Below, piece by piece: positions 1 through 32,553 of a stretch of DNA of 64,000 nucleotides. The notes below the pieces were generated by a model. It did not search any database. It was given only the letters and a program-made list of their open reading frames with translations, and was not told the origin of the DNA. How positions within the stretch are numbered: the stretch's first letter is position 1; the number at the start of each line of letters is the position of its first letter. The DNA is from a virus (Duplodnaviria > Caudoviricetes), in IMG/VR virus record IMGVR_UViG_3300018405_000014, positions 32,001-96,000 of that record; one strand, written 5' to 3'. The translations under genes were made by a program, and so were the position numbers.

Positions 1-1
1 T

Positions 2-241
2 GATCTTGCTGTCCTAGAATTCGACAGCCAGGATCGCGAATACTTCAAAGTAGTCGACGGGATATCCGGTTATTTGGAATGGTGTGAACAGGAGAAAGCG
101 CGGGTCTCTATGAATGCGATCTGCAATGCCTGTCCCTATTACGGTAAGTGTCTCTCTGAACACTTGAGAGAGGTGGTGGCACTGGATGAATCCTGCAATG
201 GGTTCCGTGGACTCATAGAGCGCTGGGAGAAACTGAAATGA
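2..241 (+). CDS. C-terminal part of a radical SAM/SPASM-like protein (partial, 5' end outside window)
   Basis: Frame from nt 2 reads DLAVLEFDSQDREYF...ICNACPYYGKCLSEHLREVVALDESCNGF...KLK*. Its CX2CX5CX14C motif resembles those of the next three genes; stop overlaps next start (ATGA). Confidence 0.7.
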   Translation, partial: DLAVLEFDSQDREYFKVVDGISGYLEWCEQEKARVSMNAICNACPYYGKCLSEHLREVVALDESCNGFRGLIERWEKLK

Positions 242-1305
242 TGACTGATCCTGCTACATTCACTGTGAACTTCAATCTGGAGATCACTGCCGGGTGCGGC
301 TATAACTGTCTAGGATGTACAGTCGATAAGAATGGGGCGAATACCCAGCTCGAACCGGAACTAGGCGATCTTCTGCCCCTTCTGGAGGACATTAGATCGA
401 AAGGCTGGCGCACACTCGAATTGAAAGTAGGGCCAACTGACCTGACCACTGCTGAGAACGGCTTTACCATCCTTGATGATCCTGTCTTCGGGAAGATAGT
501 CAGCTACTTCAACTTGATCTCAATTAATCTGGCAATGTTGAATGACCATGGCCTTAAAAGGTTAGCCGACAAGCTTGAAGAATTGATCCCTGGCAAATAC
601 CTGATGGTAGGTACCCCTGTCACCCTCAAGAACATGCTGAATAAGAAATACATGACGCAGTTGAGGGAACGATTTGCCCGCTTCAAGGGTATGTTAAAGA
701 CCATTACATTCACTCGCATTTACATGACCATCAACGTCGATTCGGATTCCATCCGCCAATTCAGTGACGAGACCTTCGATGCAATCAGCGACAGTAACCT
801 GACAGAGTTTGATTCGGTAGAATTCGTTTTCACCGATGTGAGGCGTGGCTTTGATAACCTCATGGTTGCCGAACAGTTCAAGCGGGTGACGCGCCAGTTT
901 TCATCGTTCGTACTTGATCGTGAAAAACGTGTGGCGGGCAGTCATGTCTTCACTCGACTGGTACCTCGTCCACAGGAGGGGTTCGAGTTCACTTACCGTA
1001 CAGGTGACCTCTATACAACGATAACCATGGTTGAAACGCTGACTATCTTTGACGATAAGTACAAACTCCCAAAACCATGGACATTCGAGTCACTGATTGA
1101 CTTCAGGGAAAACCAGTACGCTGATACACTGATAAAGTATTCAGGGCATCCTGAATGTGGCGATTGTTGTTACCTTGACAACTGCTCTCGAAATAACATC
1201 CCGACGCTGATGGAAGAGGCCAGCAGTGATAGGTGCCTGTTCGACATCAAGAACAGGTGGGAACCTGCCTGTCACCTCGAGAATCCGGAAAGGAATATCA
1301 CATGA
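238..1305 (+). CDS. Divergent radical SAM protein with C-terminal SPASM-like Cys cluster
   Basis: N-terminal LEITAGCGYNCLGC (CxxxCxxC); C-terminal CGDCCYLDNC...C. Confidence 0.75.
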   Translation: MMTDPATFTVNFNLEITAGCGYNCLGCTVDKNGANTQLEPELGDLLPLLEDIRSKGWRTLELKVGPTDLTTAENGFTILDDPVFGKIVSYFNLISINLAMLNDHGLKRLADKLEELIPGKYLMVGTPVTLKNMLNKKYMTQLRERFARFKGMLKTITFTRIYMTINVDSDSIRQFSDETFDAISDSNLTEFDSVEFVFTDVRRGFDNLMVAEQFKRVTRQFSSFVLDREKRVAGSHVFTRLVPRPQEGFEFTYRTGDLYTTITMVETLTIFDDKYKLPKPWTFESLIDFRENQYADTLIKYSGHPECGDCCYLDNCSRNNIPTLMEEASSDRCLFDIKNRWEPACHLENPERNIT

Positions 1306-2381
1306 AAAAACCTATAGTACAGCATCGCCAGCGCCTGGAGATTGCCCTCGATATTCTAAAGGGATGTGGTCACTCGTGTAGTGGCTGCATGATCGATAAG
1401 GAACTCGGCGGTAGTGCAGAAGACATTCCCCAACTGTACGCTCTAATTCAAGAGATGGTGGCTGATGGTGGGTACGTTGCATTTGACCTTGGTGTAGGAC
1501 CGACTGACTACATGTCTTCGGATAACACCAGTGTCCTCATGGACAACCCAACATTTAGAACCATGGCGCAGATGTTTGACCAGGTTACGTTCAACGCCGC
1601 CTTCCTCGAGAAAGACCTGGACAAGTACGCTAAAATGTGCGAAGAGATCGACGAGGCCTGTCCCAACAAGGCGATTCGATTTCTGATGCCTGCTGCCCCC
1701 GACTTCTTCAAAACAGATAAGTTCGGGACCATGATTGCCAGTAAGCTCCAATACGTCAAAGATACGTTTAAGAAAGCCTACTTAAATGAAGCAGGGTTTG
1801 TGGTCAACTGTACCTCAGACACTGTAAGCGAGAACTTTGACGAATTGATGAAGAACGGCTTTGCAGTGGAGTTCCCCACTGAGAAAGACGATATCCTCAA
1901 TATCCCATATGGTCGGCTACCTTACAAGGATATTATGGTTGGCCAGAACATCAGACGGATGTCCCACCGTATCAGTCAGTTCTACTCTGCTCTCTGTGGT
2001 GTGGATGAGCGCCGCAGGAACCCTGATCTCTGTTACCACACTGGCACTATGGTAAACCTCTGGTACACAGGCGGTAAGCTCTACTGGGTACCTTTCTTAA
2101 AAGATGATTGTCCGTTCCTTGAAGAAGAATTTGTCATCCCTAAGCCCTGGAACATGGAGAATGTTCTAAGTGTTCGTCAGAAAGCGATGAATGAGGCGAT
2201 CGAGTATCTGGAAGGTACTGACTGCATGACATGTGTTTACATGAGCAGTTGTACCGAGAAAGGGATCATTAATATCATGAAACGGTTAGCAATCAAAGAC
2301 TGTATGGTAGGGCTTCAGTATGTCAGAGATGATTCCCAATCGGGGGTTCAACATAACCTTGGAGATCCTTCAAGGGTGTAA
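1302..2381 (+). CDS. Divergent radical SAM protein with C-terminal SPASM-like Cys cluster
   Basis: Start MKKPIVQ at ATGA overlap with AAGGA SD; LDILKGCGHSCSGC; C-terminal CMTCVYMSSC...C. Confidence 0.75.
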   Translation: MKKPIVQHRQRLEIALDILKGCGHSCSGCMIDKELGGSAEDIPQLYALIQEMVADGGYVAFDLGVGPTDYMSSDNTSVLMDNPTFRTMAQMFDQVTFNAAFLEKDLDKYAKMCEEIDEACPNKAIRFLMPAAPDFFKTDKFGTMIASKLQYVKDTFKKAYLNEAGFVVNCTSDTVSENFDELMKNGFAVEFPTEKDDILNIPYGRLPYKDIMVGQNIRRMSHRISQFYSALCGVDERRRNPDLCYHTGTMVNLWYTGGKLYWVPFLKDDCPFLEEEFVIPKPWNMENVLSVRQKAMNEAIEYLEGTDCMTCVYMSSCTEKGIINIMKRLAIKDCMVGLQYVRDDSQSGVQHNLGDPSRV

Positions 2382-3333
2382 GTACAGTTGTGTTGGCTGT
2401 ATGGTCGATAAGGAACTTGATCCCGGTCCGTTCGATGAAGATGGACCGGCACTGCTCTCCTTAGTCGATGAGATGAAGGACAGTGGATATGAGCTCAATG
2501 AGTTCACAGTTGGTCCGGTTGATGTTATCGCGTCGAGTGCTGGTACCGCTATCCTGGACCATCCATTGATACAGTCCTTGGCAGATCGATACTGTGGTAT
2601 GGTACTGCCGCTCGCCCTGCTGCAAGAGACAGGCCTTAAGGAACTGTGCGAGAAACTAAACTCCCTATTAAAAGGGAAGCGGTTGAAAGTTGCCACTCCC
2701 TTCCCCGTGAGAAGTATCCGAAATAGAAAACACATCGACCTAATCAAAGACCGGGTGCAGTATATCGTTGATCATCTACCAGATGTCAAGTTCGAGTTAC
2801 TCTACCTCACCGTGAATATGTCAGACGACCCGACTGAACACCTTAGCGATCAACTCGATAAGGAAATTCATGCGTTGGATTTCGGCGTCCGTAAACTGGT
2901 GGAATATGTCTTCCCCCATGCTCGTAAGGGTTTCGATGACCTTGTCAACAGACAGGCATTCTTAAGAGCGTTTACAGGCTTCACTGAGGTCATCCGAGAA
3001 AACCGGTCGCGGTACCTGATAAAGCCTTTGGATGATTCCCTGGAACTCACCTATAGGAACGGGTACCTATATTACACCCCAACACTAATTGAGAAGTTTC
3101 CTCTATTCTCAGATCAATATAGCATTGAACGACCATGGACACGTCATGGGGTCGAAGGACTGGAAGGGAATCTCTATATCGACGAACTTACTCGTCGAGT
3201 TGAGCACGTTACCTGCGGCGATTGTATCCATATCGATCGTTGCGCACGAGGTGACATCCATCTGATAATGACCCATTTGAATTACGACGAATGCCTGGTC
3301 GGGATGAAGAACGATTGGACTATGCCATTATGA
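2320..3333 (+). CDS. Divergent radical SAM protein with C-terminal SPASM-like Cys cluster
   Basis: LEILQGCKYSCVGC; C-terminal CGDCIHIDRC...C; clear paralogue of the two upstream genes. Confidence 0.75.
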   Translation: MSEMIPNRGFNITLEILQGCKYSCVGCMVDKELDPGPFDEDGPALLSLVDEMKDSGYELNEFTVGPVDVIASSAGTAILDHPLIQSLADRYCGMVLPLALLQETGLKELCEKLNSLLKGKRLKVATPFPVRSIRNRKHIDLIKDRVQYIVDHLPDVKFELLYLTVNMSDDPTEHLSDQLDKEIHALDFGVRKLVEYVFPHARKGFDDLVNRQAFLRAFTGFTEVIRENRSRYLIKPLDDSLELTYRNGYLYYTPTLIEKFPLFSDQYSIERPWTRHGVEGLEGNLYIDELTRRVEHVTCGDCIHIDRCARGDIHLIMTHLNYDECLVGMKNDWTMPL

Positions 3334-3758
3334 CTCCACCTTATAAAGATTTTCAGCGTGTCTACAATCAGTTAATTACGGATCATCCAGATGACTTCAG
3401 TAACATGGAGATCATTGAAGACGATGAGTTGGTGGACAATGCCCTGTCTTATTTCAAGCACGCTACGTTCCCCCTTATCTACCGTAGTAAGAGTTACGCG
3501 GTCGCCATTATCTACGCGCATAAACTCAATGAAATCTACGGTATCGATAAGTACGATATACTGAATGACCCTGATTTATTCCTGGGTCAGGACATGTATT
3601 TCGTACCGTATAGTCAAGACCCTGAGACATACGACCGAATCATGGAACGTCTAATGACCATCCCAAATTGGATTGAGTCAGGGTGGGCCCCTCAGACCGT
3701 TAAGTATTGTCTACTTGAATGTACTGAGGAAGGCATTGCTTCACTTAGCGAGGTGTAA
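3330..3758 (+). CDS. Hypothetical protein of the radical SAM operon
   Basis: ATGA-coupled ORF (MTPPYKDF...), 142 aa. Confidence 0.75.
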   Translation: MTPPYKDFQRVYNQLITDHPDDFSNMEIIEDDELVDNALSYFKHATFPLIYRSKSYAVAIIYAHKLNEIYGIDKYDILNDPDLFLGQDMYFVPYSQDPETYDRIMERLMTIPNWIESGWAPQTVKYCLLECTEEGIASLSEV

Positions 3759-3759
3759 T

Positions 3760-4320
3760 GTGGAAGTCTTTGAACTCTGGAAGACCCCGATTGTACGCAT
3801 CAATGTTGCGGATCGGTTCAACATGGCAGACTGGACCGATGAGGTGTTCGCACTATACAGCATGACTGGTGGGGAGGACAGCCGCCAGCGCTGCATCGAT
3901 AAAGATTTGTTTCCAGTCATCCTCAGTATGCGCGATGAGGTGATCACTCCGGCAGTGAAACAATTCTGCCTAGATCACTTCAATTACAAGGTTGGGAACT
4001 TCTACGTCGACACCAATGGCAAGTGGATTGTTGAGGGTGAAGGTCTGTATCCACATTACCATCCCGGTTCGGTTGTCTCGGCAATTTGCTACCCAGGTGA
4101 CTCGGTAAATGGCATGACCATGTTCGACCCGAAAGGGAATGCATGTCGTGGTTACCCAAAACCTATGCGGAACAGTGCACTATTCAAAAACTTTACACTA
4201 CAACCCAAGCAAGGGGACATCTATTTGTTCCCGAGTTATGTGCAGCACAGCGTAGCCCACGTCACCGAGGACTTGCGTCTGTCGTTACTGCACGAATACT
4301 ACATCATCGAGGACCTTTAG
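3760..4320 (+). CDS. Putative 2OG-Fe(II) oxygenase (TIGR02466-like)
   Basis: GTG start with GAGGT SD; PHYHPGSVVSAICY (HxH), PKQGDIYLFPSYVQHSV (distal His), RLS. Confidence 0.75.
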   Translation: MEVFELWKTPIVRINVADRFNMADWTDEVFALYSMTGGEDSRQRCIDKDLFPVILSMRDEVITPAVKQFCLDHFNYKVGNFYVDTNGKWIVEGEGLYPHYHPGSVVSAICYPGDSVNGMTMFDPKGNACRGYPKPMRNSALFKNFTLQPKQGDIYLFPSYVQHSVAHVTEDLRLSLLHEYYIIEDL

Positions 4321-4405
4321 CCATCGATGAGGGCGTCGCCTTGCGTGGTCTCCCTCGATCTTCTGCTCTCTGGGCGGAAGATCACTTACCTGCTTGGAGT
4401 TCACA

Positions 4406-5839
4406 ATGTCAATTCCACCAATTATTCAATATCCCTTGGATCTCACTGGCACCTCGCCAACGAACCACATTGTTGGGGAAGTCCGTGATATCCTGACCGA
4501 TGCCAATCGGGTCTTTATTCCGTTGGCCGGTCCGTTTTATGCCGACAGTTTCACCATCCTCGACAACGAAACCGGTATGCCGCTACGCCCTGTGGATGAT
4601 TATATCCTGGCACAACCGTTTTCTCAAGCGTCGTTGCGCAGCGGCAAGGATGTTCAGTCGGCGGTCGTGCTTCGTGTATCAGCGCCGATCAGTGTCAAGC
4701 TTGACTACCGTGTAGTCGGTGGTGAGTATTCCTGGAACCTCGATGCGTTGCAGGACCTGATCACTCAGTTGGATCTGGATGACCGCCCTATCAAATGGGG
4801 TTCTGTTCTGGGTCGTCCAACAGCCTATCCAGCAGCCCCTCACATCCATGACATCGGTGATACCTTTGGCTGGGAATATGTCGTCTGGCAACTTGAGCGC
4901 ATCACTCAAGCGATCATGGTGGGCGATGAAGCCTCGCATGAAGAGATCCGTCAGCAAATCCGGATTGTTGAAGAGCAGCTTATTTCGCTCATTGGCAGTT
5001 TGGACAATCGACTGGTCACGCACGTTAATGACAAAACCAACCCCCATGCCACGACCAAAGCACAGGTCGGGCTTGGAAGCGTCGACAACTATGCCACAGC
5101 CACGGCAGCTGAAGCCCTGGCGGGTCTGGTAAACAACCGCTTCATGACCCCAGCGCTGGCCAACACTCTGGCACAACGCATTGCAGCCGAACACGTAGCA
5201 GACCATGAGGCCAAGAAGACCAACCCCCATGCGGTTACTAAGGCGCAAGTGGGTCTGGGTAATGTGGACAATTACCTCACGGCTACCCAAGCACAGGCCA
5301 CTAATGGCACCGCGAACGACAAGTTCATGACGCCCTTGAGGACCAAGGAAGCGATCAATGCCATCGCCGGGAATTTGCTGCAGGCGCACATCAACAACAC
5401 CAGTAACCCACACTCTACGACCAAAGCACAGGTCGGCTTGGGTAATGTGGACAATTACAGCACCGCCACCGCCGAACAGGGTATTTCCACTACGATCTCC
5501 GATAAGTTCATGACGCCTCAACGGACTTATCAGGCCATCATGTCGCACGCCGGAAATGCCCTGAACAGCCACATCGGAAATCTGAACAACCCACACCAGA
5601 CCACCGCAGCACAAGTGGGCGCATACACCACAAGTCAGACCGACACCCTGCTGTCCAGGAAATTGGGTTCGGCTGAGACAGCGGTCAATGCGAATCGTCT
5701 GGAAAACACCACCCGTGCATCAATCCTGTCGGATGCTTACGCAGCTGTCGGAAGCATGGGTAAGCGCAACGTGTTCATCTCCACGGTCGATCCAACCGGC
5801 TCTCAAGGTGCGGTAGGTGATATCTGGCTGACTTACTGA
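4406..5839 (+). CDS. Tail fibre/baseplate-associated virion protein
   Basis: YPLDLTG N-terminus typical of phiKZ-like baseplate/fibre proteins; four NPHxxTxAQVG(LGxVDNY) fibre repeats; GGAG SD. Confidence 0.8.
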   Translation: MSIPPIIQYPLDLTGTSPTNHIVGEVRDILTDANRVFIPLAGPFYADSFTILDNETGMPLRPVDDYILAQPFSQASLRSGKDVQSAVVLRVSAPISVKLDYRVVGGEYSWNLDALQDLITQLDLDDRPIKWGSVLGRPTAYPAAPHIHDIGDTFGWEYVVWQLERITQAIMVGDEASHEEIRQQIRIVEEQLISLIGSLDNRLVTHVNDKTNPHATTKAQVGLGSVDNYATATAAEALAGLVNNRFMTPALANTLAQRIAAEHVADHEAKKTNPHAVTKAQVGLGNVDNYLTATQAQATNGTANDKFMTPLRTKEAINAIAGNLLQAHINNTSNPHSTTKAQVGLGNVDNYSTATAEQGISTTISDKFMTPQRTYQAIMSHAGNALNSHIGNLNNPHQTTAAQVGAYTTSQTDTLLSRKLGSAETAVNANRLENTTRASILSDAYAAVGSMGKRNVFISTVDPTGSQGAVGDIWLTY

Positions 5840-5849
5840 GGAAGCTGAT

Positions 5850-6983
5850 ATGCCTATTGACATGAAGATAGGTCCATCGACCTGGGCCAGGACAAAGCAA
5901 CCGCATGTGAAGGTGTCTGACTCGAGCTGGGCGCCGTTGAAACGCGCGCTGGTGAAAACAACTGCAGGCTGGAAGGAAGTCTGGCCATCGGAAATGGTTT
6001 ACACCCACACCGGTGTTGGTTATAACCTGAACATCTACAACTGTTTCGGTCAACCCAATTCGCCTGGGAAGTACGTGTTTGTTAACAACGGCTACATTGG
6101 TTCAGATACTACCGATCAATGGGCCTTGGCGACAGGTGTGTTCCCGGCAGGTTCAACTGTGGTCATCATCAACAATGGCCTGATCATTGGACGGGGTGGT
6201 CACGGTGCATCCTTCCATAGCTATGGAATGAGTTCATCGATCAGTCAGGCCGGCCCTGGCGGCCCTGGACTTAACCTCCAGACACCCGTCACTATCCAGA
6301 ACAATGGGGTTATCGCGGGTGGTGGTGGTGGTGGCGGTGCCAGTGGAGACTTCGGCGGGAAAACACGTTGGAACTTCCGAGGGGGTGGCGGTGCAGGCAT
6401 TGAGCCAGGTGTAGGTGGTATCCATACCTGGGGTAATACGCCACCTTCCCCGGCCACTTATGAATTGGGAGGTATCGCCAGAAGTGGCAGTGATGGACAT
6501 GGTGGCAACGCAGGTGTAAATGGACGAACTGCAACCATGGTTGTCAACAACGACCACTCGATGATGACGATTGGTGCACCTGCTGGTATCTCCATTGGCA
6601 GTACTGGTTTTATTCAGGCCGGTTCTACCGGTTTGGATTCCACCCGTGTTAAAGGTCGACAGGTTGGGGGTACGGGACGTACTCGTATACGGGTTGCCAG
6701 TATCGATGGTCGAGGCCAATACGGTGATACCCTCACCGTGAACCTGACCTATGACGGCCCGGCTGGTACCATCGGCGGATCATGGATTTCAGGCGGTTCC
6801 ATGATCTCGGTCGGGCGCATCGGAAACACCTTCAGATTTACCGCAACAGGGTACGAAAGCGGGTATTCGAGAAACTTCTGGCGCAGTGGGACCATGCGGT
6901 TCACCCTGACAACTGGGGAAGGCAGTGACTACCAGGATGTGTACATCCGAGTAGGTGATGGCGGCTACTTTGAACTTTACTAA
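5850..6983 (+). CDS. Glycine-rich tail fibre tip/adhesin-like protein
   Basis: GWKEVWP N-terminal motif, INNGLIIGRGGHG and NNGVIAGGGGGGG glycine-rich blocks; follows fibre gene. Confidence 0.75.
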   Translation: MPIDMKIGPSTWARTKQPHVKVSDSSWAPLKRALVKTTAGWKEVWPSEMVYTHTGVGYNLNIYNCFGQPNSPGKYVFVNNGYIGSDTTDQWALATGVFPAGSTVVIINNGLIIGRGGHGASFHSYGMSSSISQAGPGGPGLNLQTPVTIQNNGVIAGGGGGGGASGDFGGKTRWNFRGGGGAGIEPGVGGIHTWGNTPPSPATYELGGIARSGSDGHGGNAGVNGRTATMVVNNDHSMMTIGAPAGISIGSTGFIQAGSTGLDSTRVKGRQVGGTGRTRIRVASIDGRGQYGDTLTVNLTYDGPAGTIGGSWISGGSMISVGRIGNTFRFTATGYESGYSRNFWRSGTMRFTLTTGEGSDYQDVYIRVGDGGYFELY

Positions 6984-7204
6984 GATACGAGTGGCGGGGG
7001 TTGTTGTTTCACGGGCGATTCGCTGGTAACCATGTACAACGGTGACCTCAAGCGAATTGATGAGGTGGTACCAGGCGATCTGGTCAAGACTCCGTGCAGT
7101 TTACGTGGGACGGTTCGAACGAGCAGATCCCAGTTTACAGCGTTTACGACTACGAGTTGCCTGCAGTGGATGCCTCACCATTCAAGCGCATCAGCGACAA
7201 GTAA
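6984..7204 (+). pseudogene. Remnant of a C-terminal Hint (intein/hedgehog-like) domain of the preceding fibre gene
   Basis: In frame directly after TAA 6981-6983: DTSGGGCCFTGDSLVTMYNGDLKRIDEVVPGDLVKT (Hint N-terminal block). The similarity then stops, and a protein-like tail continues in another frame to TAA at ~7204. Confidence 0.7.
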
Positions 7205-7293
7205 TTGCATACGGGAGGGGCAACCCTCTCGCTATGTCACGTCTCATTATATGACCAGAACACCTACCCACCACTCCGAGCAAGGGGTTATTC

Positions 7294-7929
7294 ATGCTTG
7301 ATGAAATTTACACCGGTCCTGACCGAGGCCATTTCAGGACCATCCGTCTACTGGACAATAGCGGTGTTCAGCAACTGGCAAACTGCCGAATCAAGGAAGC
7401 TACGGTATTCAACTACCTGAGCGACCTGAAGTACGCCATTATTGGTTACACCGTTGAATGGTGGAAGAATGACGAACAAGCCCCGCACGAGGGCGGTGAA
7501 TCGCAGATCTACATTCCACACGGTCGACCCAATGTCAACAAGCTTTACTTCCGGGCTAAGTCGAGCATCACCTCGAACATGCTGTATCTGGAAGATGCCA
7601 TCATCAACGACTTCCTGAACACCAAGGCATTGGCTGATCCGATGTCCCTGCAGTCGTACAGTCAGGAAGCGGCTGAACAAACTGCCTCAGTGGCCATCTG
7701 GCGTGAATTGGAAGGCACTCCTTACTCGTACAACGAAGCCGTCCACATCACCCAATTGCAAGCCACACCTGACAGCCCACTGATGGTGGTCTCTCAAGGT
7801 CTGCGGGCCAACTGGCGTCACACTGGTGCAGAGGAATTGCTCCAACTTCGCGTGACGGATTATGCCTTCACCAAACTGCGTGAGTGCTACGAAAAGCTCC
7901 ATGCTGCTATTATTACCGAGGATGTATAA
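7294..7929 (+). CDS. Hypothetical protein
   Basis: 211-aa ORF with SD, co-oriented with fibre/lysin genes. Confidence 0.7.
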   Translation: MLDEIYTGPDRGHFRTIRLLDNSGVQQLANCRIKEATVFNYLSDLKYAIIGYTVEWWKNDEQAPHEGGESQIYIPHGRPNVNKLYFRAKSSITSNMLYLEDAIINDFLNTKALADPMSLQSYSQEAAEQTASVAIWRELEGTPYSYNEAVHITQLQATPDSPLMVVSQGLRANWRHTGAEELLQLRVTDYAFTKLRECYEKLHAAIITEDV

Positions 7930-7932
7930 GTC

Positions 7933-8655
7933 ATGGCCACTAAAGAAACCTTGAAAGAACTCCAGCGCCAAATGAAGGCAGCTGGGATGTACAGCGGCGC
8001 TATCGATGGACTCTGGGGCCCGATCAGTCACGGAGCGTTTCTCAATGCCCGCCGCAAAGCGCTGCGGATGAGCCGACCGAGCGCTGAAGCCAATGGCATT
8101 GGTCCGTTGCTGTTCAGTTACTGTAAAGCCACTGCATGGTCCGCCAAGGTCTCTGAAGAATTCGTAGGGATGGTACATCAGATCTGTGACGACCTGCAGA
8201 TGGGTACCCAGGGCGCTGACCTACTGATGTCCTGCATGGCGTTCGAGACGGGCGAGACCTTCAGTCCCTCCATCAAGAACGGTGCTGGCGCACCTCACTA
8301 CGGTCTGATCCAGTTTGGCAGGGCTGCTGCAAAGGACGTAGGGACCACTGTAGAGGCGCTGGTGACCCTGACAGCCGAACAGCAGCTGATCTACGTCCAC
8401 AAGTTCTTCAAGCCGTATAAAGGCAAACTGAAGACCCTGAGTGACATTTACATGCGCATCCTCTACCCTGTGGCCGTTGGTAAGCCCGAAGACTATGTAT
8501 TATTCAGTGAAAAGAATACGAAGTCTAAGGCATATGTTCAAAACCGTGGTCTCGATGCTAACCGTGATGGGCTTATCACCAAAGCCGAAGCCGCTGCAAA
8601 AGTACAGGACAAGTTGCGTCGTGGTCTGCATCCCCGTAATCTGCGGGCCTGCTGA
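7933..8655 (+). CDS. Endolysin: peptidoglycan-binding domain + lysozyme-like/lytic transglycosylase domain
   Basis: LQRQMKAAGMYSGAIDGLWGPIS (PG-binding); CMAFETGETFSP...GLIQF; EF-hand-like DANRDGLITKAE. Confidence 0.85.
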   Translation: MATKETLKELQRQMKAAGMYSGAIDGLWGPISHGAFLNARRKALRMSRPSAEANGIGPLLFSYCKATAWSAKVSEEFVGMVHQICDDLQMGTQGADLLMSCMAFETGETFSPSIKNGAGAPHYGLIQFGRAAAKDVGTTVEALVTLTAEQQLIYVHKFFKPYKGKLKTLSDIYMRILYPVAVGKPEDYVLFSEKNTKSKAYVQNRGLDANRDGLITKAEAAAKVQDKLRRGLHPRNLRAC

Positions 8656-8656
8656 A

Positions 8657-8708
8657 ACAAAAAAAAGAAAGTGAAGCTAGAGGGAGCCCTAGGGCTCCCT
8701 CTTATGCC
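8657..8708. terminator. Bidirectional hairpin terminator between convergent genes
   Basis: A-tract then agagggagccc-ta-gggctccctct followed by tatgccg. Confidence 0.75.
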
Positions 8709-8796
8709 GGCTGTAGGTATTCTTACGACCGTTCTGATTTGGTAAGACGAGTAGCACGAATGCCACAGAAGTTGAAAGTGTCTGGCAGACCGTGAG

Positions 8797-8961
8797 TCAG
8801 ATGCCAAGGGCTGATTCCAGGTGCGCAATCTTACGTTCATACTCCAGAACCTCTGGACTGCGAACGCCATAGCGACGCATTGCCCGTTCGAGCAAGCGTA
8901 CGGTATGGTCCAGATCGGATTTGAGGGCGCGGTTGTCGATACCGAACAGTTTCTTAAACAT
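8797..8961 (-). CDS. Small hypothetical protein (54 aa, below ORF track cutoff)
   Basis: MFKKLFGIDNRALKSDLDHTVRLLERAMRRYG...ESALGI*; AAAGGAG SD. Confidence 0.65.
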   Translation of the reverse strand: MFKKLFGIDNRALKSDLDHTVRLLERAMRRYGVRSPEVLEYERKIAHLESALGI

Positions 8962-9003
8962 GGTGCGCCCTCCTTTGGGCCAGTAATAAATTAGGTGGTG
9001 AGA

Positions 9004-9844: not shown

Positions 9845-10006
9845 ATAAAGGGATGATAGATCAGTTTATCAGGCACAGGCCTAACGACTGATCTATCAGA
9901 ATTTCGGTGAGACGGCATAATGGGTAGTCAGGGGCGATGGCCATTGCCGATCGCTCGCCTGATCCTACCCCGGAGGCACTGTGGTACCTATCCTCCCTAT
10001 AGCATA
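9845..10006 (-). ncRNA. Candidate structured small RNA (~160 nt)
   Basis: No ORF; three hairpins including a 12-bp perfect stem (9854-9865/9887-9898); upstream AAAATAAC-N11-TATG, downstream U-tract. Confidence 0.45.
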
Positions 10007-10025
10007 CTGCCGACCTAGTTATTTT
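10003..10025 (-). promoter_or_regulatory. Putative non-virion RNAP (middle/late) promoter
   Basis: AAAATAAC-N11-TATG, same architecture as 44276-44298. Confidence 0.45.
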
Positions 10026-10087
10026 TTACTATTTTGACTGAACTGACTTCGAAGGCACAACGAATTCTAACAAGAGAAGTGACCACT

Positions 10088-10123
10088 TCACCTAGGTGAT
10101 GTAGGGCTGACTTTAATTCGAAT
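10088..10123 (-). promoter_or_regulatory. Putative early promoter
   Basis: ATTCGA-N14-TACATCAC-CTAGGTGA. Confidence 0.7.
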
Positions 10124-10161
10124 CGAATCGGCATGGGGAGGCAGTGCCTCCCTCGTTATGT

Positions 10162-10434
10162 TCAGAACCCGTTCATCTTGGTCCATTCACGATCTGTCCA
10201 CTTGGGCGTATCAGGCGATACTGCTACCAAGCTAGACCGTTCAGCGATCCATTTGTACTTCGTGACCCCATCGTAGTCACCCGACTTGCAGAACATCTCG
10301 AACGCATCTGCAGGAGTGTACTCGTAGTCGTTCTTATACCACTCTCGCTTCTCCAGATACAACTCATCACCATCAATCACCTTGATGATAAAGGGGGTCT
10401 TCTGTAAATCCTCGAAGTAGATCGCTTGTTTCAT
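10162..10434 (-). CDS. Hypothetical protein
   Basis: 90-aa ORF, AGGA SD, followed by hairpin 10136-10153. Confidence 0.7.
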   Translation of the reverse strand: MKQAIYFEDLQKTPFIIKVIDGDELYLEKREWYKNDYEYTPADAFEMFCKSGDYDGVTKYKWIAERSSLVAVSPDTPKWTDREWTKMNGF

Positions 10435-10647
10435 TGTTATTGTCCTATCGTGATGACCATTACCAATTAACTAAGTTGACCGCCGATCCCACCCCAACAC
10501 CTTGTCCCTCATCGTCGTCGGACTGCGCTTAGGGACACCAGAGCCATTACCCCGGTCACACCAATATACAGGTTTAGTGTTTATTCACGCCCGACCTTAA
10601 CAAATAGTGTGAAAGATCTTTCTATTGACTTACTTCGGTGACTTACA

Positions 10648-11277
10648 ATGCTACTCAATATGGTTATGGCGGCACATCAAGGGCGTCTTCGTTGGGGTCG
10701 GAGACCCACTCCCAATGGTCAGGTACTGTTCGATACACCGGGCACATTTCAATGGACGTGTCCTGAAGGGGTCACCAAAGTATGCATTGCCATGGTTGGC
10801 CATGGCGGCACTGCCAATAGAGATCCGTCGTACGTAGGCGGTGGCGCCAACATCCGTTATATAAACGACATCGACGTAGTCCCTGGACAGGTATACGGCA
10901 TCGTTGTAGCAAGACCTCATCCACATTTCGCAGGTAACGCCAACAATAACTGCGGTGCGCTAGGTTATAGCTGTACATCTCCGCTTAAAGGTGTCGTACA
11001 AGGCTGGAATGGAGGCGAGAGTAGAGTAAGTATCGCTCAGAACGCGAATCGATTTGGTAATAGCGCAGGCAACCTGGGAACTCACGGACATGGTATAGAT
11101 CTCCGTACGTTTAATACAGTCCCTCCTAACAGTGCTACATTCTCTGGTGGTAACTATGGCGCGGGTGCTGGTGTGAGTAATCAGTGGCGAATGACAGGCG
11201 CGGCTGGAAGGTCAGCACTCCGCATCATCTGGGGTGAGGATCGTACCTTCCCAGACAAAAACATCGGTGATCTATAA
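10648..11277 (+). CDS. Glycine-rich tail fibre/tip accessory protein
   Basis: FDTPGTFQWTCPEGVTKVCIAMVGHGG and C-terminal LRIIWG motifs of phage glycine-rich domains. Confidence 0.7.
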   Translation: MLLNMVMAAHQGRLRWGRRPTPNGQVLFDTPGTFQWTCPEGVTKVCIAMVGHGGTANRDPSYVGGGANIRYINDIDVVPGQVYGIVVARPHPHFAGNANNNCGALGYSCTSPLKGVVQGWNGGESRVSIAQNANRFGNSAGNLGTHGHGIDLRTFNTVPPNSATFSGGNYGAGAGVSNQWRMTGAAGRSALRIIWGEDRTFPDKNIGDL

Positions 11278-11708
11278 TGAACCCACTGTTAATCGCAGCT
11301 GCACACCAACGCTCAAAGGGTAGTGGTTTCAACCCCGCTGCCTATCGCTACGCCGGGACTGTCGTAATCGGTCATATTTCAGCGGGTGGGGCTGAGTATG
11401 GTTACTACAAACCCACCAACATTGGCTCAATCACCCCAAGTACCCTAGACACCCGCGCCATCACTCGCGCCACTTGGAAAGACAAACGATTCCAGGCGCC
11501 TGCTAGCCGCGAACTGGTCTTAACACTCAATGGCACCCAACGCCCCAACATTACCAAGCTCGCCTTGGTCAAAGACGGTCAGTTGGTAGTCGAACTCACC
11601 ACACCGTCCCGCGAAGGTACCTACGGCACCCCAGAGTACAACTTGATCTATCTCACGGGTGACGCTGAGATGCCTATCAGTGGGACAGTACAGCTCTATA
11701 TTGAATGA
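11277..11708 (+). CDS. Putative tail tip/fibre accessory protein
   Basis: TAATG coupling; N-terminal AAHQ tag shared with upstream gene; YGY...IGSITP beta-rich motif. Confidence 0.6.
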   Translation: MNPLLIAAAHQRSKGSGFNPAAYRYAGTVVIGHISAGGAEYGYYKPTNIGSITPSTLDTRAITRATWKDKRFQAPASRELVLTLNGTQRPNITKLALVKDGQLVVELTTPSREGTYGTPEYNLIYLTGDAEMPISGTVQLYIE

Positions 11709-28056: not shown

Positions 28057-30294
28057 TTAACCTCCAGTTCCAGCGCCGGTATCAGAACCGGTACCAGTGC
28101 TGCCAGTGCTACCTTCGACGGGGTCGGTGGCGTCGGCGCTACCGGGAAAGTTCTGGACGGGATACGCCCAGCCCTCCGACAGTACTTCGTCCAGGCCGAT
28201 CACGTTGATCTTGCCGAAGATCGGGAGGTGGTTGACGTGACGGTTACGCGGCTGAACCATCGCTTCACGGATCTGGGTTTCATCACGGCTCACGTTAACG
28301 TGGCTGATCAGTTCCGGAATCCAGAAGTGAGTACCGCAGTTCAGCGGATCGAGGCCTTCGGTTTCACGCTTGAAGGTCCAGTAGATGGTGCGGCGAATGC
28401 GCTCGTCGACCGAGGTCACTTTCTCGAAGCTGATGTCGTCACCCAGGGTACGGGCATCGCCGTCCTTCAGGATGTACGAAGCAGTCTTCGGATCGGAACC
28501 GATGATCACGTGCACCTTCTCACCAACGTAGCCGGTGTAGGCGTCCAGAGCGGTCTTGTAGTTGGACTCCAGGATAGCATCCTGAATGTCGCTACGCAGG
28601 ACGTTGCCCAGAGCAGCCTGGACGTCCTGTACGCGCTCGAAGCTGCGGCGGCTGATTACCAGCTCACGCAGGTCGAGGTTGCGCTCACGGAACCACGGAC
28701 GGACCAGGAAGCGTGCGATACCTTCGACTTCCGGCAGGAGGTCGTCAGCGTCGATGCTGCCGCTCAGGAACTTCCAACGGCTCAGGCCGTCAACGAAGCG
28801 CTGCAGAGTGGTCACAGCCATGTTGTCGTTACGCAGACGCGCAGCAGTCACCAGCAGATCGATGTCAGCCATGCCACGGGCTTCAGCCAGCGGGGACGGA
28901 ATCGACAGCGGGCTACCCAGCATCACCGGATAACGCTCGGTGTACTCGGAGCTGTTCAGCTGCAGGCCGCGCAGACGGCGGTTGGCGTTGGACAGGCGAG
29001 CAGCCGGTTCCCAGCCGATCACAGCGAGGTCAGCCAGGCCATCAGCGATGGTCTTGCCTACGCCAGCGTTGGTCAGGGACAGGACTTCACCAGCAGCGTT
29101 AACCACACGGTCAACAGCGATGGTAGCCGGGTTGACAACAGCGTTGCCCTTCTCGACGTCCACGTTACCAGTCACGACCAGAGCCAGAGTCACGGTGTAA
29201 CCACCTTCGACGATCTGCTTCAGGATCGGGTTGGTTACCGGCTCGCCATTGTAGTTCAGGGACTTGGCATTGATCTGGATGGAGCTCGAACGGAAGTTCA
29301 GTTCCAGTTCGCGGGCCAGACCCTGGTTGCCCTTGATGAACGCAGCACGCGGCAGGTTCTCGACATCGAAGCCCAGAACGTCGCTGTCACCCTTACGGAT
29401 GTACAGAGTCTTCAGACCGACGTTGCGGTCCAGAGAATCGGTCTGGTTGGCTTGACCGGCGATCTTGACCAGAGTGTTCTGGGCCAGGCCGACCAGGTTG
29501 ACGCGATTGCCGACTTTCAGAGCGCTGGTGGTGACCTTACGGTTGCCCAGTTCAACGCTGCGCGGAGCGATGACGTTTTCGGCGACGAACAGATCCTTGT
29601 TACCGTCATGGATTTCCGGTACCAGAGTGGTCGACTGGTCGGCCAGGATCTTGTAGTTCAGAGCAGCTTCGAGCAGACGGCGCTGTTTGAAGTCGGCGTG
29701 GTCGCCACGGGTGTTGTGCAGGAAGTGGTTCAGCACGAGGTGCGAACGGATGGTGACGTCAGCGCCGCCCTGTTCCGGGGTCAGAACCACGGTACGGTAG
29801 AAGCCTTCAGCGAATTCGCCCTGCTTGGCCGCTTTCTGGTTGTAGACCATGGACAGACCGATGAAGTCGGTCAGGTTGCTGTTGTCGAAGGCTTCCAGGG
29901 AAGCGACAGCTTTTTCCATGAAGTCGAAGTCGCCGAGGGACTCGACGGAAACGACGGTGCCAGCGCCACGAGGAGCGGAAGCGTCCGAAGCGCTGAGAGC
30001 GGTACGGGCGTATTCAGCCGGGGAGGCCGAAGCCATGGCGATAACAGCAACGGCGTCTTTCTGAGCCTTGGTCAGGGTTTCGCCGCCGAAGGATTCCAGG
30101 GAGACCGACAGGTCGCTGACCACGGATTCCATGGACAGTTCCAGGTTTTCACGGTCCAGCGAGGACAGCGATTCCATGGATGCTACACCGATGTTACCAA
30201 CGATGGCACCCTGGCTGAAACGGGATTGCAGATCTTGAGCCTGACTGGCCAGGGTTTCCTGGGCGGTCGGCGCCTTCTTACCTACTACACTCAT
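28057..30294 (-). CDS. Major capsid protein (phiKZ gp120-like)
   Basis: 745 aa from MSVVGKK (alternative start 30357); propeptide with SMES/SLES/SLEAF sites; QGEFAEGFYRTVV, VQPRNRHVNHLP motifs; strong codon bias; synteny. Confidence 0.85.
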   Translation of the reverse strand: MSVVGKKAPTAQETLASQAQDLQSRFSQGAIVGNIGVASMESLSSLDRENLELSMESVVSDLSVSLESFGGETLTKAQKDAVAVIAMASASPAEYARTALSASDASAPRGAGTVVSVESLGDFDFMEKAVASLEAFDNSNLTDFIGLSMVYNQKAAKQGEFAEGFYRTVVLTPEQGGADVTIRSHLVLNHFLHNTRGDHADFKQRRLLEAALNYKILADQSTTLVPEIHDGNKDLFVAENVIAPRSVELGNRKVTTSALKVGNRVNLVGLAQNTLVKIAGQANQTDSLDRNVGLKTLYIRKGDSDVLGFDVENLPRAAFIKGNQGLARELELNFRSSSIQINAKSLNYNGEPVTNPILKQIVEGGYTVTLALVVTGNVDVEKGNAVVNPATIAVDRVVNAAGEVLSLTNAGVGKTIADGLADLAVIGWEPAARLSNANRRLRGLQLNSSEYTERYPVMLGSPLSIPSPLAEARGMADIDLLVTAARLRNDNMAVTTLQRFVDGLSRWKFLSGSIDADDLLPEVEGIARFLVRPWFRERNLDLRELVISRRSFERVQDVQAALGNVLRSDIQDAILESNYKTALDAYTGYVGEKVHVIIGSDPKTASYILKDGDARTLGDDISFEKVTSVDERIRRTIYWTFKRETEGLDPLNCGTHFWIPELISHVNVSRDETQIREAMVQPRNRHVNHLPIFGKINVIGLDEVLSEGWAYPVQNFPGSADATDPVEGSTGSTGTGSDTGAGTGG

Positions 30295-30442
30295 TTTTTG
30301 TTTCTCCGCGAAGATTGCAGCGCGCGCTGCGTGACTGCGAGCATACCGGGTTTTCATCTCCGTCCCCCGATACTTACGCAAGTTTTGCATACCATTGCAG
30401 AAAGATGTCCGCAATAGTCCTCAATAAAATACCGGCTTTTAG

Positions 30443-30952
30443 TTACAGTTGGTTCACGGCGTGCTGAAACGTGATAGTTTTAGCCAACTCGTGTACACCT
30501 ACCATGTCATAGAGTACGGCGCTGATTTTAAGCGAAAGGTCAGCACGGGCAGTTTTCAAATCCTGCTCAGACTTATCCGACGCCTGTGTACATAGAAAGA
30601 GTCCCAGAGTGTTCTGGTCGATCATTTCTACATGGGCATGTAGCTCACCCTGCCTGTTGGTAGTCGCACCGAAGACAGTAGTCTCGAACGGCACGTTGGC
30701 GCAAAATGCACGTTCTTCGAGGTTCAGGCTTTCACCTACACCGTCGAAATCGAAGGTGCATTTGCCCTCACCCAACAGGATGTTCAGGATTTCTTCACGA
30801 TGGGATTGCACCAAGCGGTAAATCAAAAGATCTCTGCTTGATACTATGCCAGACAACTTTTCCCAATCAGTGAGATCGGCATTCGACAGTCCCAGCTCCT
30901 TCATGATGAGGTTGAGCCAGACAGGGACTACGACCAGTTTGATTTTGCTCAT
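30443..30952 (-). CDS. Conserved protein upstream of MCP (gp119-like)
   Basis: 169-aa ORF, GAGGA SD, between MCP and DnaB. Confidence 0.65.
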   Translation of the reverse strand: MSKIKLVVVPVWLNLIMKELGLSNADLTDWEKLSGIVSSRDLLIYRLVQSHREEILNILLGEGKCTFDFDGVGESLNLEERAFCANVPFETTVFGATTNRQGELHAHVEMIDQNTLGLFLCTQASDKSEQDLKTARADLSLKISAVLYDMVGVHELAKTITFQHAVNQL

Positions 30953-30993
30953 TAGACATTCATCCTCTTTAGAGCGGTGGTTAAGGCTTATCC

Positions 30994-32553
30994 ATGGACA
31001 TTAAGCTATTCCTTGTTAAATCCGTTTCGCTTCTGTACCTTGAAAGTCAGGTAGAGGGGTATAAATCCGGTAACGTCTCGTTAATTCGCGATCTATTGAC
31101 CAACCTCCAGCTTCCAGATGACATCAGCGAAATCGGCGAAGGGCGGAACGTCCTTGCCAATCTCCGCACCACAGTCCTGTGGATGCTTAATAACGGTGAT
31201 TCACAAAGATATGAACCGGATTCGCTTCTTCAGCGGCTTCGGATGAACACCCAGCATGACGATGTCACCTATAAAGCCCTTGAAAAGTCTATCCGTAAGT
31301 ACCCGGATGAGTCCGTCGTCCGCAAACATATCAATGACATTTCGCAGGAACTGCGCCGCTACAAAAACCGCGAGAAGCTGCACGAGATCATCAAGAAGGC
31401 GTCCTACACTCTGAGCTTCAAAGAAGCCGAAGTCGAGGATTGGGACGGCTTTATTCTCAACACCGCCCAAGACCTCTTGTCGGTGGACATGGAAACTGAA
31501 GACCGGGTCGACCCTGCCTTCATTACCAGCGTCAACTTCCAGGACAAGAGTTCGGTCACCGCGGCGTTCGAGGACATGAATAAGTCCTTGGGCACCGAAG
31601 GTATCATCCGCTGGCCAATCAAGGCCCTGAACCGTCTCATGGGCGTCCAGGCAGGGGGTAGACGCGGTGAGTTCGGTCTGATCAATGCCCTGCCTGGTAA
31701 CAATAAGTCAGGCACTATGCTTGACCTGTTTATCGGCACCTGCATTTTCAACGATCCTTTCCTGTTCGATCCTGAGAAGAAACCTTTGGCTCTGTTCTAT
31801 AGCACCGAAGATGACATCCCAGTGATCATCCAGAAGATCTACGTGATCCTGCGGCAGCGGGAAGTCGGTCACGCAGTCTCTGTCAAAGGTATGGACCCGC
31901 AAGCTGCTGCTGAGTACGTCATCGAGAAACTGCAAGCCCGTGGCTGGAACGTGGAGCTGCACCGTATCCGGGGTTCATCATTCTCCTATGCCAAGTACAT
32001 CAAGCACCTGGAGCAGTACAAGGCTAAAGGGTATGAGGTAGCAGTATCTTTCGTCGACTACCTGGCAATGTACAGCAAAGACGGCTGTGCACAAGGCTCG
32101 ACTGGTGACGACCTGCAAGACCTGTTCAAGCGTGTGCGTGAGTACACATCTGCTGAAAAGATCCTTCAGGTCACAGCACACCAGCTCTCGACCCAAGCCA
32201 AGGAAGAGAAGCGCATGAACCCCACCAAGTTCATTCGCGACATGCCGGGCGGCGGTTACTACCAGGGCTGTAAGAAGCTCGATACCGAGGTGGATTGGGA
32301 GTTCTACGTCAACAAGCAAGTGGTCAACAACGGCACGTACTTGGAATACATCTGGGGTAAACACCGCGGTGTGGTGGAGCCGACTCCAGAGGCGCACAAG
32401 TACTTCGTCATGCGGTATCTGGATAACCACATGTACGGCATCCCGTACGACCTGGATCTGGATGAAGACCTCAGTTACAAAGTCGTGGGTGGACGTCCTA
32501 ACTCCGAAGGCGGCGGAGCTACGTGGGACGACATTGAAAACATCGCAACATAA
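30994..32553 (+). CDS. dnaB: DnaB-like replicative helicase (phiKZ gp118-like)
   Basis: GGRRGE, ALPGNNKS (Walker A-like), STED, FVDYL, TAHQLS, GKHRG. Confidence 0.85.
   Translation: MDIKLFLVKSVSLLYLESQVEGYKSGNVSLIRDLLTNLQLPDDISEIGEGRNVLANLRTTVLWMLNNGDSQRYEPDSLLQRLRMNTQHDDVTYKALEKSIRKYPDESVVRKHINDISQELRRYKNREKLHEIIKKASYTLSFKEAEVEDWDGFILNTAQDLLSVDMETEDRVDPAFITSVNFQDKSSVTAAFEDMNKSLGTEGIIRWPIKALNRLMGVQAGGRRGEFGLINALPGNNKSGTMLDLFIGTCIFNDPFLFDPEKKPLALFYSTEDDIPVIIQKIYVILRQREVGHAVSVKGMDPQAAAEYVIEKLQARGWNVELHRIRGSSFSYAKYIKHLEQYKAKGYEVAVSFVDYLAMYSKDGCAQGSTGDDLQDLFKRVREYTSAEKILQVTAHQLSTQAKEEKRMNPTKFIRDMPGGGYYQGCKKLDTEVDWEFYVNKQVVNNGTYLEYIWGKHRGVVEPTPEAHKYFVMRYLDNHMYGIPYDLDLDEDLSYKVVGGRPNSEGGGATWDDIENIAT

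Follow-up and report, generated by a model that had tools for sequence, protein, structure and literature searches.

Radical S-adenosylmethionine (rSAM) enzymes of the SPASM type act on cysteines of folded or nascent proteins in the QhpD/QhpC and anSME/sulfatase systems. The nearest described system to the one reported here is the HXS antiphage system (Li et al., Nat Commun 2026, PMC13128918), in which the rSAM enzymes HxsB and HxsC, with HxsD, mature HxsA; the target of these several rSAM enzymes is thus a whole protein with short His-x-Ser repeats rather than a short peptide. A study of triceptides describes rSAM enzymes, HaaB and HtkB, that form three-residue cyclophanes on His motifs (PMC11499958). 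Here we describe a cassette of ∼11.2 kb in the viral record IMGVR_UViG_3300018405_000014 (Duplodnaviria; Caudoviricetes; 116,699 bp, CheckV completeness 44%), which comes from a jumbo phage related to pPa_SNUABM_DT01 (DT01); the cassette lies within the tail-fibre module. The cassette carries seven rSAM-type genes, two iron oxygenase genes and a gene, g05, whose product ends in a near-invariant Cys-His tail. On the strength of sequence conservation and gene order, we consider it somewhat better than an even bet (about 55%) that the cassette enzymatically matures this tail. It resembles the HXS system in its apparent use of several rSAM enzymes on a whole protein, but differs in being phage-encoded and linked to fibre genes, in adding oxygenases and in having up to seven rSAM genes. 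The stretch analysed, called the window, comprises 64,000 nucleotides (bases 32001-96000 of the record); positions in this phage are those of the window, or of the record where marked as genome.

The record holds one such cassette, at genome 25092-36320, with all of its genes in the same orientation. It begins 6.9 kb upstream of the window, and window 2-4320 contains its 3′ half. The genes, in order, are the following.

g03, genome 25092-25607: cupin/JmjC-like oxygenase (JmjC_2 35.5 bits, Cupin_2 31.8 bits)
g04, genome 25598-26638: rSAM-SPASM enzyme
g05, genome 26640-27179, 4.8 kb upstream of the window: 179-residue protein
g06, genome 27195-27917: cassette protein
g07, genome 27919-28983: cassette protein
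g08, genome 28980-29978: rSAM-SPASM enzyme
g09, genome about 30163-31252: rSAM enzyme
g10, genome 31312-32241, starting 688 nt upstream of the window: rSAM enzyme of 309 residues, of which the C-terminal 79 lie at window 2-241 (+) with a CX2CX5C...C auxiliary-cluster motif (phrog_1802 rSAM, E 5.5e-7)
B, window 238-1305 (+): divergent rSAM-like paralogue, 355 residues
C, window 1302-2381 (+): divergent rSAM-like paralogue, 359 residues
D, window 2320-3333 (+): divergent rSAM-like paralogue, 337 residues
E, window 3330-3758 (+): core cassette protein of 142 residues (phrog_20737, a family of unknown function, E 8.9e-40)
F, window 3760-4320 (+): 2-oxoglutarate (2OG)-Fe(II) oxygenase, 186 residues from a GTG start (PF13759, 46.6 bits against a cut-off of 27; phrog_81)

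A first-pass annotation of window 2-6983 had described an array of divergent rSAM/SPASM paralogues and a 2OG-Fe(II) oxygenase abutting tail-fibre genes. All of these genes are present on the plus strand as listed, from the rSAM end through B, C, D, E and the oxygenase F (which passes PF13759) to a fibre gene and a Gly-rich gene, and the coupling described between them is borne out by ATGA overlaps at junctions 238, 1302 and 3330 and by an overlap of 62 nt between C and D. However, the array seen in the window was incomplete, since four canonical rSAM genes, one cupin gene and three further genes lie upstream. Neither E nor g07 has a match at a usable level in Pfam, NCBIfam or an Atlas feature search, and g07 has none in PHROGs.

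We propose g05 as the substrate because its tail is near-invariant and because g04 is its constant neighbour. The tail of g05 conforms to [V/I]-CHxS-CHx[S/N]-CHxx-R[G/S]RR-COOH, in which the three CHxS-type units and R[G/S]RR make up the nearly invariant last 16 residues; the motif occurs once per locus and is confined to the g05 gene. The last 18 residues are almost identical in all seven of the first homologues found (7/7), although the homologue from Ralstonia phage RSL2 is otherwise barely alignable. Among 65 database homologues of 174-220 residues, many of them encoded on contigs of 200-274 kb, C164, H165, C168, H169, C172, H173, R176, R178 and R179 are invariant (65/65), and none of these proteins, nor g05 itself, has a Pfam domain. 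Similarly, exactly three CHxx units and an R[G/S/A]RR end are found in 81 of the 83 distinct open reading frames (ORFs) in the fetched loci, with Ser at tail position -13 in 81 and an R-x-R-R end in 82. The tail is kept even in the g05 proteins of Agrobacterium phage Atu_ph07 and Sinorhizobium phage Phosso, for which BLASTP aligns the tail region alone (26-29 residues).

Linkage was counted in the best 80 loci of the 167 IMG/VR contigs that encode a g05 relative; several of these loci are cut by contig ends, which explains part of the shortfall for any gene. A g04 gene adjoins g05 in 78 of the 80 loci, and in this phage a single base separates the g04 stop from the g05 start. The other genes follow closely: g06 is found in 77 loci, g07 in 74, the cupin gene and g08 in 73 each, g09 in 71, g10 in 64, an F-type oxygenase in 62 and E in 61, while the B/C/D family is found in 25. 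E lies after g10 or after the B/C/D genes, in phages and in Bdellovibrio-type genomes alike.

The core is shared by three lineages of jumbo phages and by genomes of the Bdellovibrio type, and it usually comes directly after fibre genes. No near-identical DNA was found in the phage collection searched with window 1-7000; the closest cultured relative at the protein level is the Pseudomonas jumbo phage DT01, whose cassette proteins are 48-76% identical and in the same order, with the exception of an extra oxygenase-like gene in DT01. Ralstonia phages RSL2 and RSF1 and Burkholderia phages FLC6, FLC8 and S13 are more distant. Atu_ph07 and Phosso, which belong to a different lineage (470-490 kb), carry, in this order, the cupin gene, g04, g05 with the same tail, g06, g08, g09 and g10; E directly follows g10 in Phosso, and is ∼5 kb away on the other strand in Atu_ph07. 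A scan of bacterial genomes returned seven loci. The cassette and the tail are present in four Bdellovibrio-type contigs from metagenome-assembled genomes, which hold one or two B/C/D members, and in one Rhodobacteraceae bin; of the other two, one is a 4-kb contig with g05 to g08 that looks like a phage fragment and one is a weak match in Amycolatopsis without the cassette. One copy (locus L016) sits in a bacterial chromosome, since it is flanked by FabH-like and AMP-binding genes.

The AlphaFold model of g05 (predicted local distance difference test score, pLDDT, 90.5; predicted template-modelling score, pTM, 0.83) has residues 1-164 folded, while the two final blocks of ten residues (161-179), where the tail lies, have lower confidence, 72 and then 52. 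We read this as a predicted folded protein with a flexible C-terminal tail. The fold has no match in the Protein Data Bank (PDB) by Foldseek at E ≤ 1e-3, and a wide search with VIA gave a best Z of 4.9 and no known fold, sulfatase and dehydrogenase subunits included. In BFVD, g05 matches uncharacterised phage proteins only, including those of DT01-like and Atu_ph07 relatives, and it shares its domain with the Atu_ph07 protein (E 4.3e-4, template-modelling (TM) score 0.61). A predicted complex of g04 and g05 (score 0.01, mark 0.32) carries no weight for or against binding.

Variants of g05 bear on the nature of the protein. In a relative at positions 9962-10909 of locus L065, the RGRR end gives way to a Peptidase_S74 domain (44.8 bits, cut-off 22), which comes directly after four CHxS units. 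Peptidase_S74, the chaperone of endosialidase, helps trimeric fibres and spikes to fold, after which it is removed by cleavage. Because this relative carries a fibre chaperone domain after its CHxS repeat, the comparison suggests that g05 proteins are trimers of the fibre type, in which the mature C-terminus bears the Cys-His repeat. Two other relatives (L038, 9992-10675; L014, 3-362) have tails of 13 CHxx units in five blocks that are split by V/P spacers, and the Rhodobacteraceae bin has two tandem short g05 genes (L019, 6062-6879) that encode 137 and 134 residues, both with the full tail. We read the expanded tails and the tandem genes as variants typical of modified cores. The L014 sequence is a 4.3-kb contig in a Dysosmobacter assembly, with a g08 61% identical to that of this phage, and is probably a phage fragment; the tandem genes of the Rhodobacteraceae bin stand behind an ORF of 1979 residues and are followed by the cassette in shuffled order.

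Compared to the HXS system, the likeness extends to the enzymes in that HxsB and HxsC are among the weak NCBIfam matches of g04 and g08, but the scores are low: g04 scores 22 bits against HxsB (TIGR03978, cut-off 370) and g08 17 bits against HxsC (TIGR03977, cut-off 267.9). Judged by these profile scores, the rSAM enzymes of the cassette are not members of the HxsB and HxsC families. No match to the HxsD family (TIGR03976) was found among the cassette proteins scanned against NCBIfam. The substrates differ as well, since the repeats of g05 begin with Cys, have a period of 4 and lie at the extreme C-terminus, and since g05 has no Pfam match, so that no peptidoglycan-binding domain was found. 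The likeness to anSME lies in the structure 4k37, which is the top structural match of B, and in a weak but full-length NCBIfam match of g04 (E 2.9e-10; 39.8 bits against a cut-off of 349). The last tail unit of g05, C-x-x-x-R, shares its Cys-to-Arg spacing with the sulfatase motif, but position +2 of the tail unit holds G, S, C or N, and in rare cases A or T, instead of Pro or Ala. With the triceptides, g05 shares three His-x-Ser/Asn triplets in its tail, and the cyclophane maturases YhhB, FxsB, AmcB and GrrM are top NCBIfam matches of g04, all far below cut-off; however, g05 is a folded protein with no leader or protease detected, and a cross-link is a candidate product only. More generally, a folded protein of 179 residues differs from the short leader-core precursor of a RiPP (a peptide made on ribosomes and modified after translation), and no peptidase family was found in the cassette with Pfam or NCBIfam.

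The four canonical rSAM enzymes can be recognized from their motifs, and their nearest families act on peptides and proteins. The CxxxCxxC motif is present in g04, g08, g09 and g10 as well as in B, C and D. Against Pfam PF04055 (cut-off 29.5), g10 passes with 43.3 bits, while g04 (26.3) and g08 (17.7) fall below. The GGE motif is found in g04, g08 and g10, and g09 has GGD. By eye, g04 and g08 have the seven-Cys SPASM pattern, C-x(9-15)-G-x4-C, gap, CX2CX5CX3C, gap, C, and g09 has a close variant of it; the TIGR04085 SPASM hidden Markov model gives 25.1, 15.3 and 15.6 bits for g04, g08 and g09, respectively, against a cut-off of 27. By contrast, B, C, D and g10 have only CX2CX5C...C, four cysteines that would be enough for one auxiliary cluster. 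The best NCBIfam matches of g04 are the peptide and protein maturases YhhB, PapB, FxsB, anSME, AmcB, DynA, DarE and HxsB, all far below the NCBIfam cut-offs; a search of PDB sequences with g04 gave ChlB (E 0.0045).

B, C and D are mutual paralogues (BLASTP E values of 5e-66 for B-D, 2e-38 for C-D and 7e-29 for B-C) that match neither Pfam Radical_SAM (PF04055) at E ≤ 1 nor any NCBIfam rSAM family, and PHROGs places them in a family of unknown function. Their profile is collinear with the g10 family (hhalign E 1.4e-4, probability 53%, 286 columns) but has no match to the g04 family (probability 1.6%), and with this profile PDB sequences returned MiaB alone, at E 0.32. The AlphaFold model of B (pLDDT 77.4) has the partial TIM-barrel fold of rSAM enzymes. 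It matches 23 PDB chains at E ≤ 1e-3, and all of those listed are rSAM enzymes: anSME 4k37 is at the top (E 2e-5, TM score 0.48), followed by EpeE/YydG, CteB, viperin, SkfB, PqqE and SuiB. All seven cysteines, those of CxxxCxxC and the four C-terminal ones, are invariant in 128 of 128 family members (127 full-length relatives and B), but G-P-[T/V]-D replaces the GGE motif in B, C and D, and GG[ED] is found in none of the 127 relatives. Only 195 relatives were found at E ≤ 1e-3 among 1.84 billion representative proteins. Since relatives are few, the seven cysteines are invariant and GPTD stands for GGE, we conclude from sequence and the predicted structure that B, C and D are a small, distinct, rSAM-like family under strong constraint, with one predicted auxiliary cluster. 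Thus, the divergent paralogy proposed in the first-pass annotation holds, as does the resemblance of the enzymes to rSAM/SPASM proteins that modify peptides and proteins.

In a family tree of 62 members, one clade contains the first-position copies, with C orthologous to those of relatives (69-75% identity), and two sister clades, B-type and D-type, contain the second-position copies. Each relative examined has a copy of just one of these two types, while this phage has both, B being the extra one. Of 23 viral loci with a B/C/D gene, 19 are on contigs that also hold g05, and the remaining four are fragmentary contigs that break off short of where g05 would lie. Because the family is found in 25 of the 80 loci, B, C and D are accessory, lineage-restricted enzymes of the phages, and the core consists of g03-g10 and E.

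Among the canonical rSAM genes, g09 has no ATG, GTG or TTG start; an ATC stands where relatives have Met (L002, 16160-16170; genome about 30163, 1.8 kb upstream of the window), and is either a rare start codon or a base-call error. We considered g09 as a truncated pseudogene and rejected this, because the N-terminal 112 residues with the Cys motif are in an open frame behind the ATC and are 72-74% identical to relatives. Between g08 and g09, where this phage has only ∼185 nt, some relatives (L005, 3217-5477; L008, 3858-5429; L030, L032 and L034) have an insert of 1.5-2.3 kb, which in L030, L032 and L034 holds an ORF of 338-372 residues on the opposite strand.

Three fibre genes of one family flank the cassette. 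The genes on either side are the following.

Fibre gene g01, genome 20952-23351
Fibre gene g02, genome 23420-24994
Repeat tail fibre, window 4406-5839 (+) (phrog_2163, 5e-129; phrog_13857, 8e-72)
gp38-like Gly-rich adhesin (tip), window 5850-6983 (+) (PF05268 GP38, 28.9 bits against a cut-off of 25)
Protein of 211 residues, window 7294-7929 (+)
Lytic-transglycosylase homologue, window 7933-8655 (+)

The linkage to fibres is on the upstream side. Fibre genes lie directly upstream of the cupin gene in DT01 and RSL2, with one small gene between in Phosso, and they also stand immediately upstream in 25 of the 80 IMG/VR loci; in 5/5 distant IMG/VR loci tested, the gene before the cupin gene matches tail-fibre PHROGs (phrog_19602, E 3.5e-4 to 1e-9), and the N-terminal domain of this phage's fibre is found in 25 of the 80 loci. 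In one Bdellovibrio locus (L020, 4475-8217), the three consecutive proteins directly upstream of the cassette carry a weak motif for pilin-type N-terminal methylation and, at the C-terminus, a Peptidase_S74 domain (40-50 bits, cut-off 22). Downstream of the cassette, no fibre gene was found in the 80 loci. The fibre at 4406 and the tip at 5850 are missing in all eight close, DT01-like relatives that show the position, and the gp38-like gene has no homologue in the related loci examined. The 4406 fibre and the upstream fibre g02 are paralogues (70% identity over 405 residues), and we take the 4406 fibre and its adhesin to be an additional set that was inserted in this phage. Since the insertion is found in this phage only, these two proteins are unlikely as substrates. 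The tip passes the PF05268 cut-off and follows a fibre gene as in T2/T6-type gp38, but this likeness concerns the inserted pair, outside the conserved cassette. A match of the fibre repeat to a thiovarsolin RiPP profile (E 4e-4, 20.6 bits against 35) was set aside as a common fibre repeat below the cut-off.

These results change the first-pass proposal in one main respect. Finding no short precursor in the window, it had taken the adjacent fibre or tip protein as the substrate; that step is not supported, since the candidate substrate g05 lies upstream, and the specific link to the 4406 and 5850 genes is absent from close relatives, while a broader link to fibre genes holds across lineages. 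The inspection of upstream sequence that it recommended did yield a gene with a Cys-His tail, though for a folded protein rather than a short RiPP-type precursor. A separate precursor that explains the cluster, which would have counted against the fibre proposal, has therefore largely been found, but the precursor-like g05 itself looks fibre-related.

If g05 is the substrate, g04 would apply SAM-derived radical chemistry to its tail, with candidate reactions that include thioether links (as in ranthipeptides and QhpC), His-to-C-beta cyclophanes and Cys oxidation (as by anSME). The other rSAM enzymes would add further links, including B, C and D, which keep both Fe-S sites and have GPTD for GGE, and the cupin and 2OG oxygenases would hydroxylate residues of the tail. 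The matured g05 would then join or cap a fibre. More tentatively, and at somewhat less than even odds, the cassette is a kit, found in no fewer than three jumbo-phage lineages as well as in predatory bacteria of the Bdellovibrio type, in which four to seven rSAM enzymes and iron oxygenases install cross-links or a protein-derived metal/redox centre in the Cys-His tail of a trimeric fibre-type protein.

Several observations weigh against maturation of the g05 tail. The action of the enzymes on g05 is something that we infer, and its role as substrate is drawn from conservation and gene order. The four canonical rSAM enzymes are far under every NCBIfam cut-off and B, C and D are unmatched, so that no chemistry can be transferred from known families; moreover, B, C and D, being without the GGE motif, might be unable to cleave SAM. 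A tail of 16 residues is also a small target for seven rSAM enzymes and two oxygenases, and other or additional substrates (the fibres, g06, g07 or E) are therefore plausible. Finally, if g05 is, as is probable, a trimeric protein of the fibre type, its (Cys-His)x3 tail could bind metal ions with no enzyme involved. This last point leads to the main rival, which we consider improbable: the tail would stay unmodified and would bind metal or Fe-S at the end of a trimeric protein of the fibre type or of some accessory scaffold, and the enzymes would act elsewhere. Fibre tips of phage T4 bind iron via HxH repeats, and each g05 chain has three Cys-His pairs; the relative with a trimer-fibre chaperone domain directly after its repeat and the arrays of 13 units fit such a plain metal site. 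What it leaves unexplained is the adjacency of g05 and g04 in 78 of 80 loci and the constraint on Ser -13 (81/83) and R-x-R-R (82/83), which equals that on Cys and His. In the model of g05, the tail has low confidence and no defined metal site, although a monomer model cannot show a site between chains.

A direct action of the enzymes on the large fibres or the Gly-rich tip, whether the 4406 and 5850 proteins or the upstream g01 and g02, would fit the number of enzymes, which exceeds the apparent needs of a 16-residue tail, and no neighbours of the cassette are more constant than fibre genes, as seen in three phage lineages and one Bdellovibrio locus. Nonetheless, we regard this as quite unlikely, because the inserted fibre and tip are absent in 8/8 close relatives, with no homologue of the gp38-like gene in the loci examined, and because the type of fibre varies by lineage (only 25 of 80 loci have this fibre N-terminal domain) while g05 and its tail are constant. 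A product other than a protein, for example a DNA base, a decoration with sugars or a small cofactor, appears very improbable. Although nucleosides and sugars are also among the targets of rSAM enzymes and 2OG oxygenases, Pfam and NCBIfam scans found no glycosyltransferase, nucleotide-metabolism or transferase gene in the cassette, the closest rSAM families and folds are peptide and protein maturases, and the cassette encodes a conserved protein with an invariant tail. Roles in DNA repair or host metabolism, which would fit a non-protein product, are proposed in the phage literature (PMC8541153).

If the more tentative reading, of a shared kit for the tail of a trimeric fibre-type protein, is correct, no earlier case of radical-SAM chemistry on a component of a virion or an adhesion fibre would precede it, and the modification could harden or activate the part that touches the surface of the prey or host cell. 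Our full-text literature searches found no paper on radical-SAM modification of a phage particle or fibre protein, and no published description of the cassette in work on radical SAM in jumbo phages and Bdellovibrio, on tail fibres or on RiPPs; the phage genome papers that list these genes only name them (PMC8541153, PMC5468394, PMC8066314, PMC11898562). The 167 IMG/VR contigs with a g05 relative indicate that the cassette is widespread, and it crosses from phages to predatory bacteria. With a defined target of 16 residues and cultured carriers (DT01, RSL2, FLC6 and Atu_ph07), both the chemistry and a role in adsorption are directly testable.

Some minor features of the region were also noted. 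A scan of window 1-9000 for promoters and terminators gave numbers within chance (7 against 9.4 expected and 12 against 7.2 expected, s.d. 2.8). In relatives, one or two additional oxygenase genes of PF13759-like type stand between D and E, after F or in both places (L003, 14978-15430; L005, 10989-11540; L007, 10991-11542); this phage lacks them, and its inserted fibre and adhesin pair occupies the place of the second oxygenase of relatives. In all eight DT01-like loci, homologues of the genes at window 7294-7929 and 7933-8655 directly follow the oxygenase genes. Further downstream, window 10648-11708 (+) holds ORFs of 209 and 143 residues, the first of which is Gly-rich, with GGxxN-type runs that recall the tip protein.

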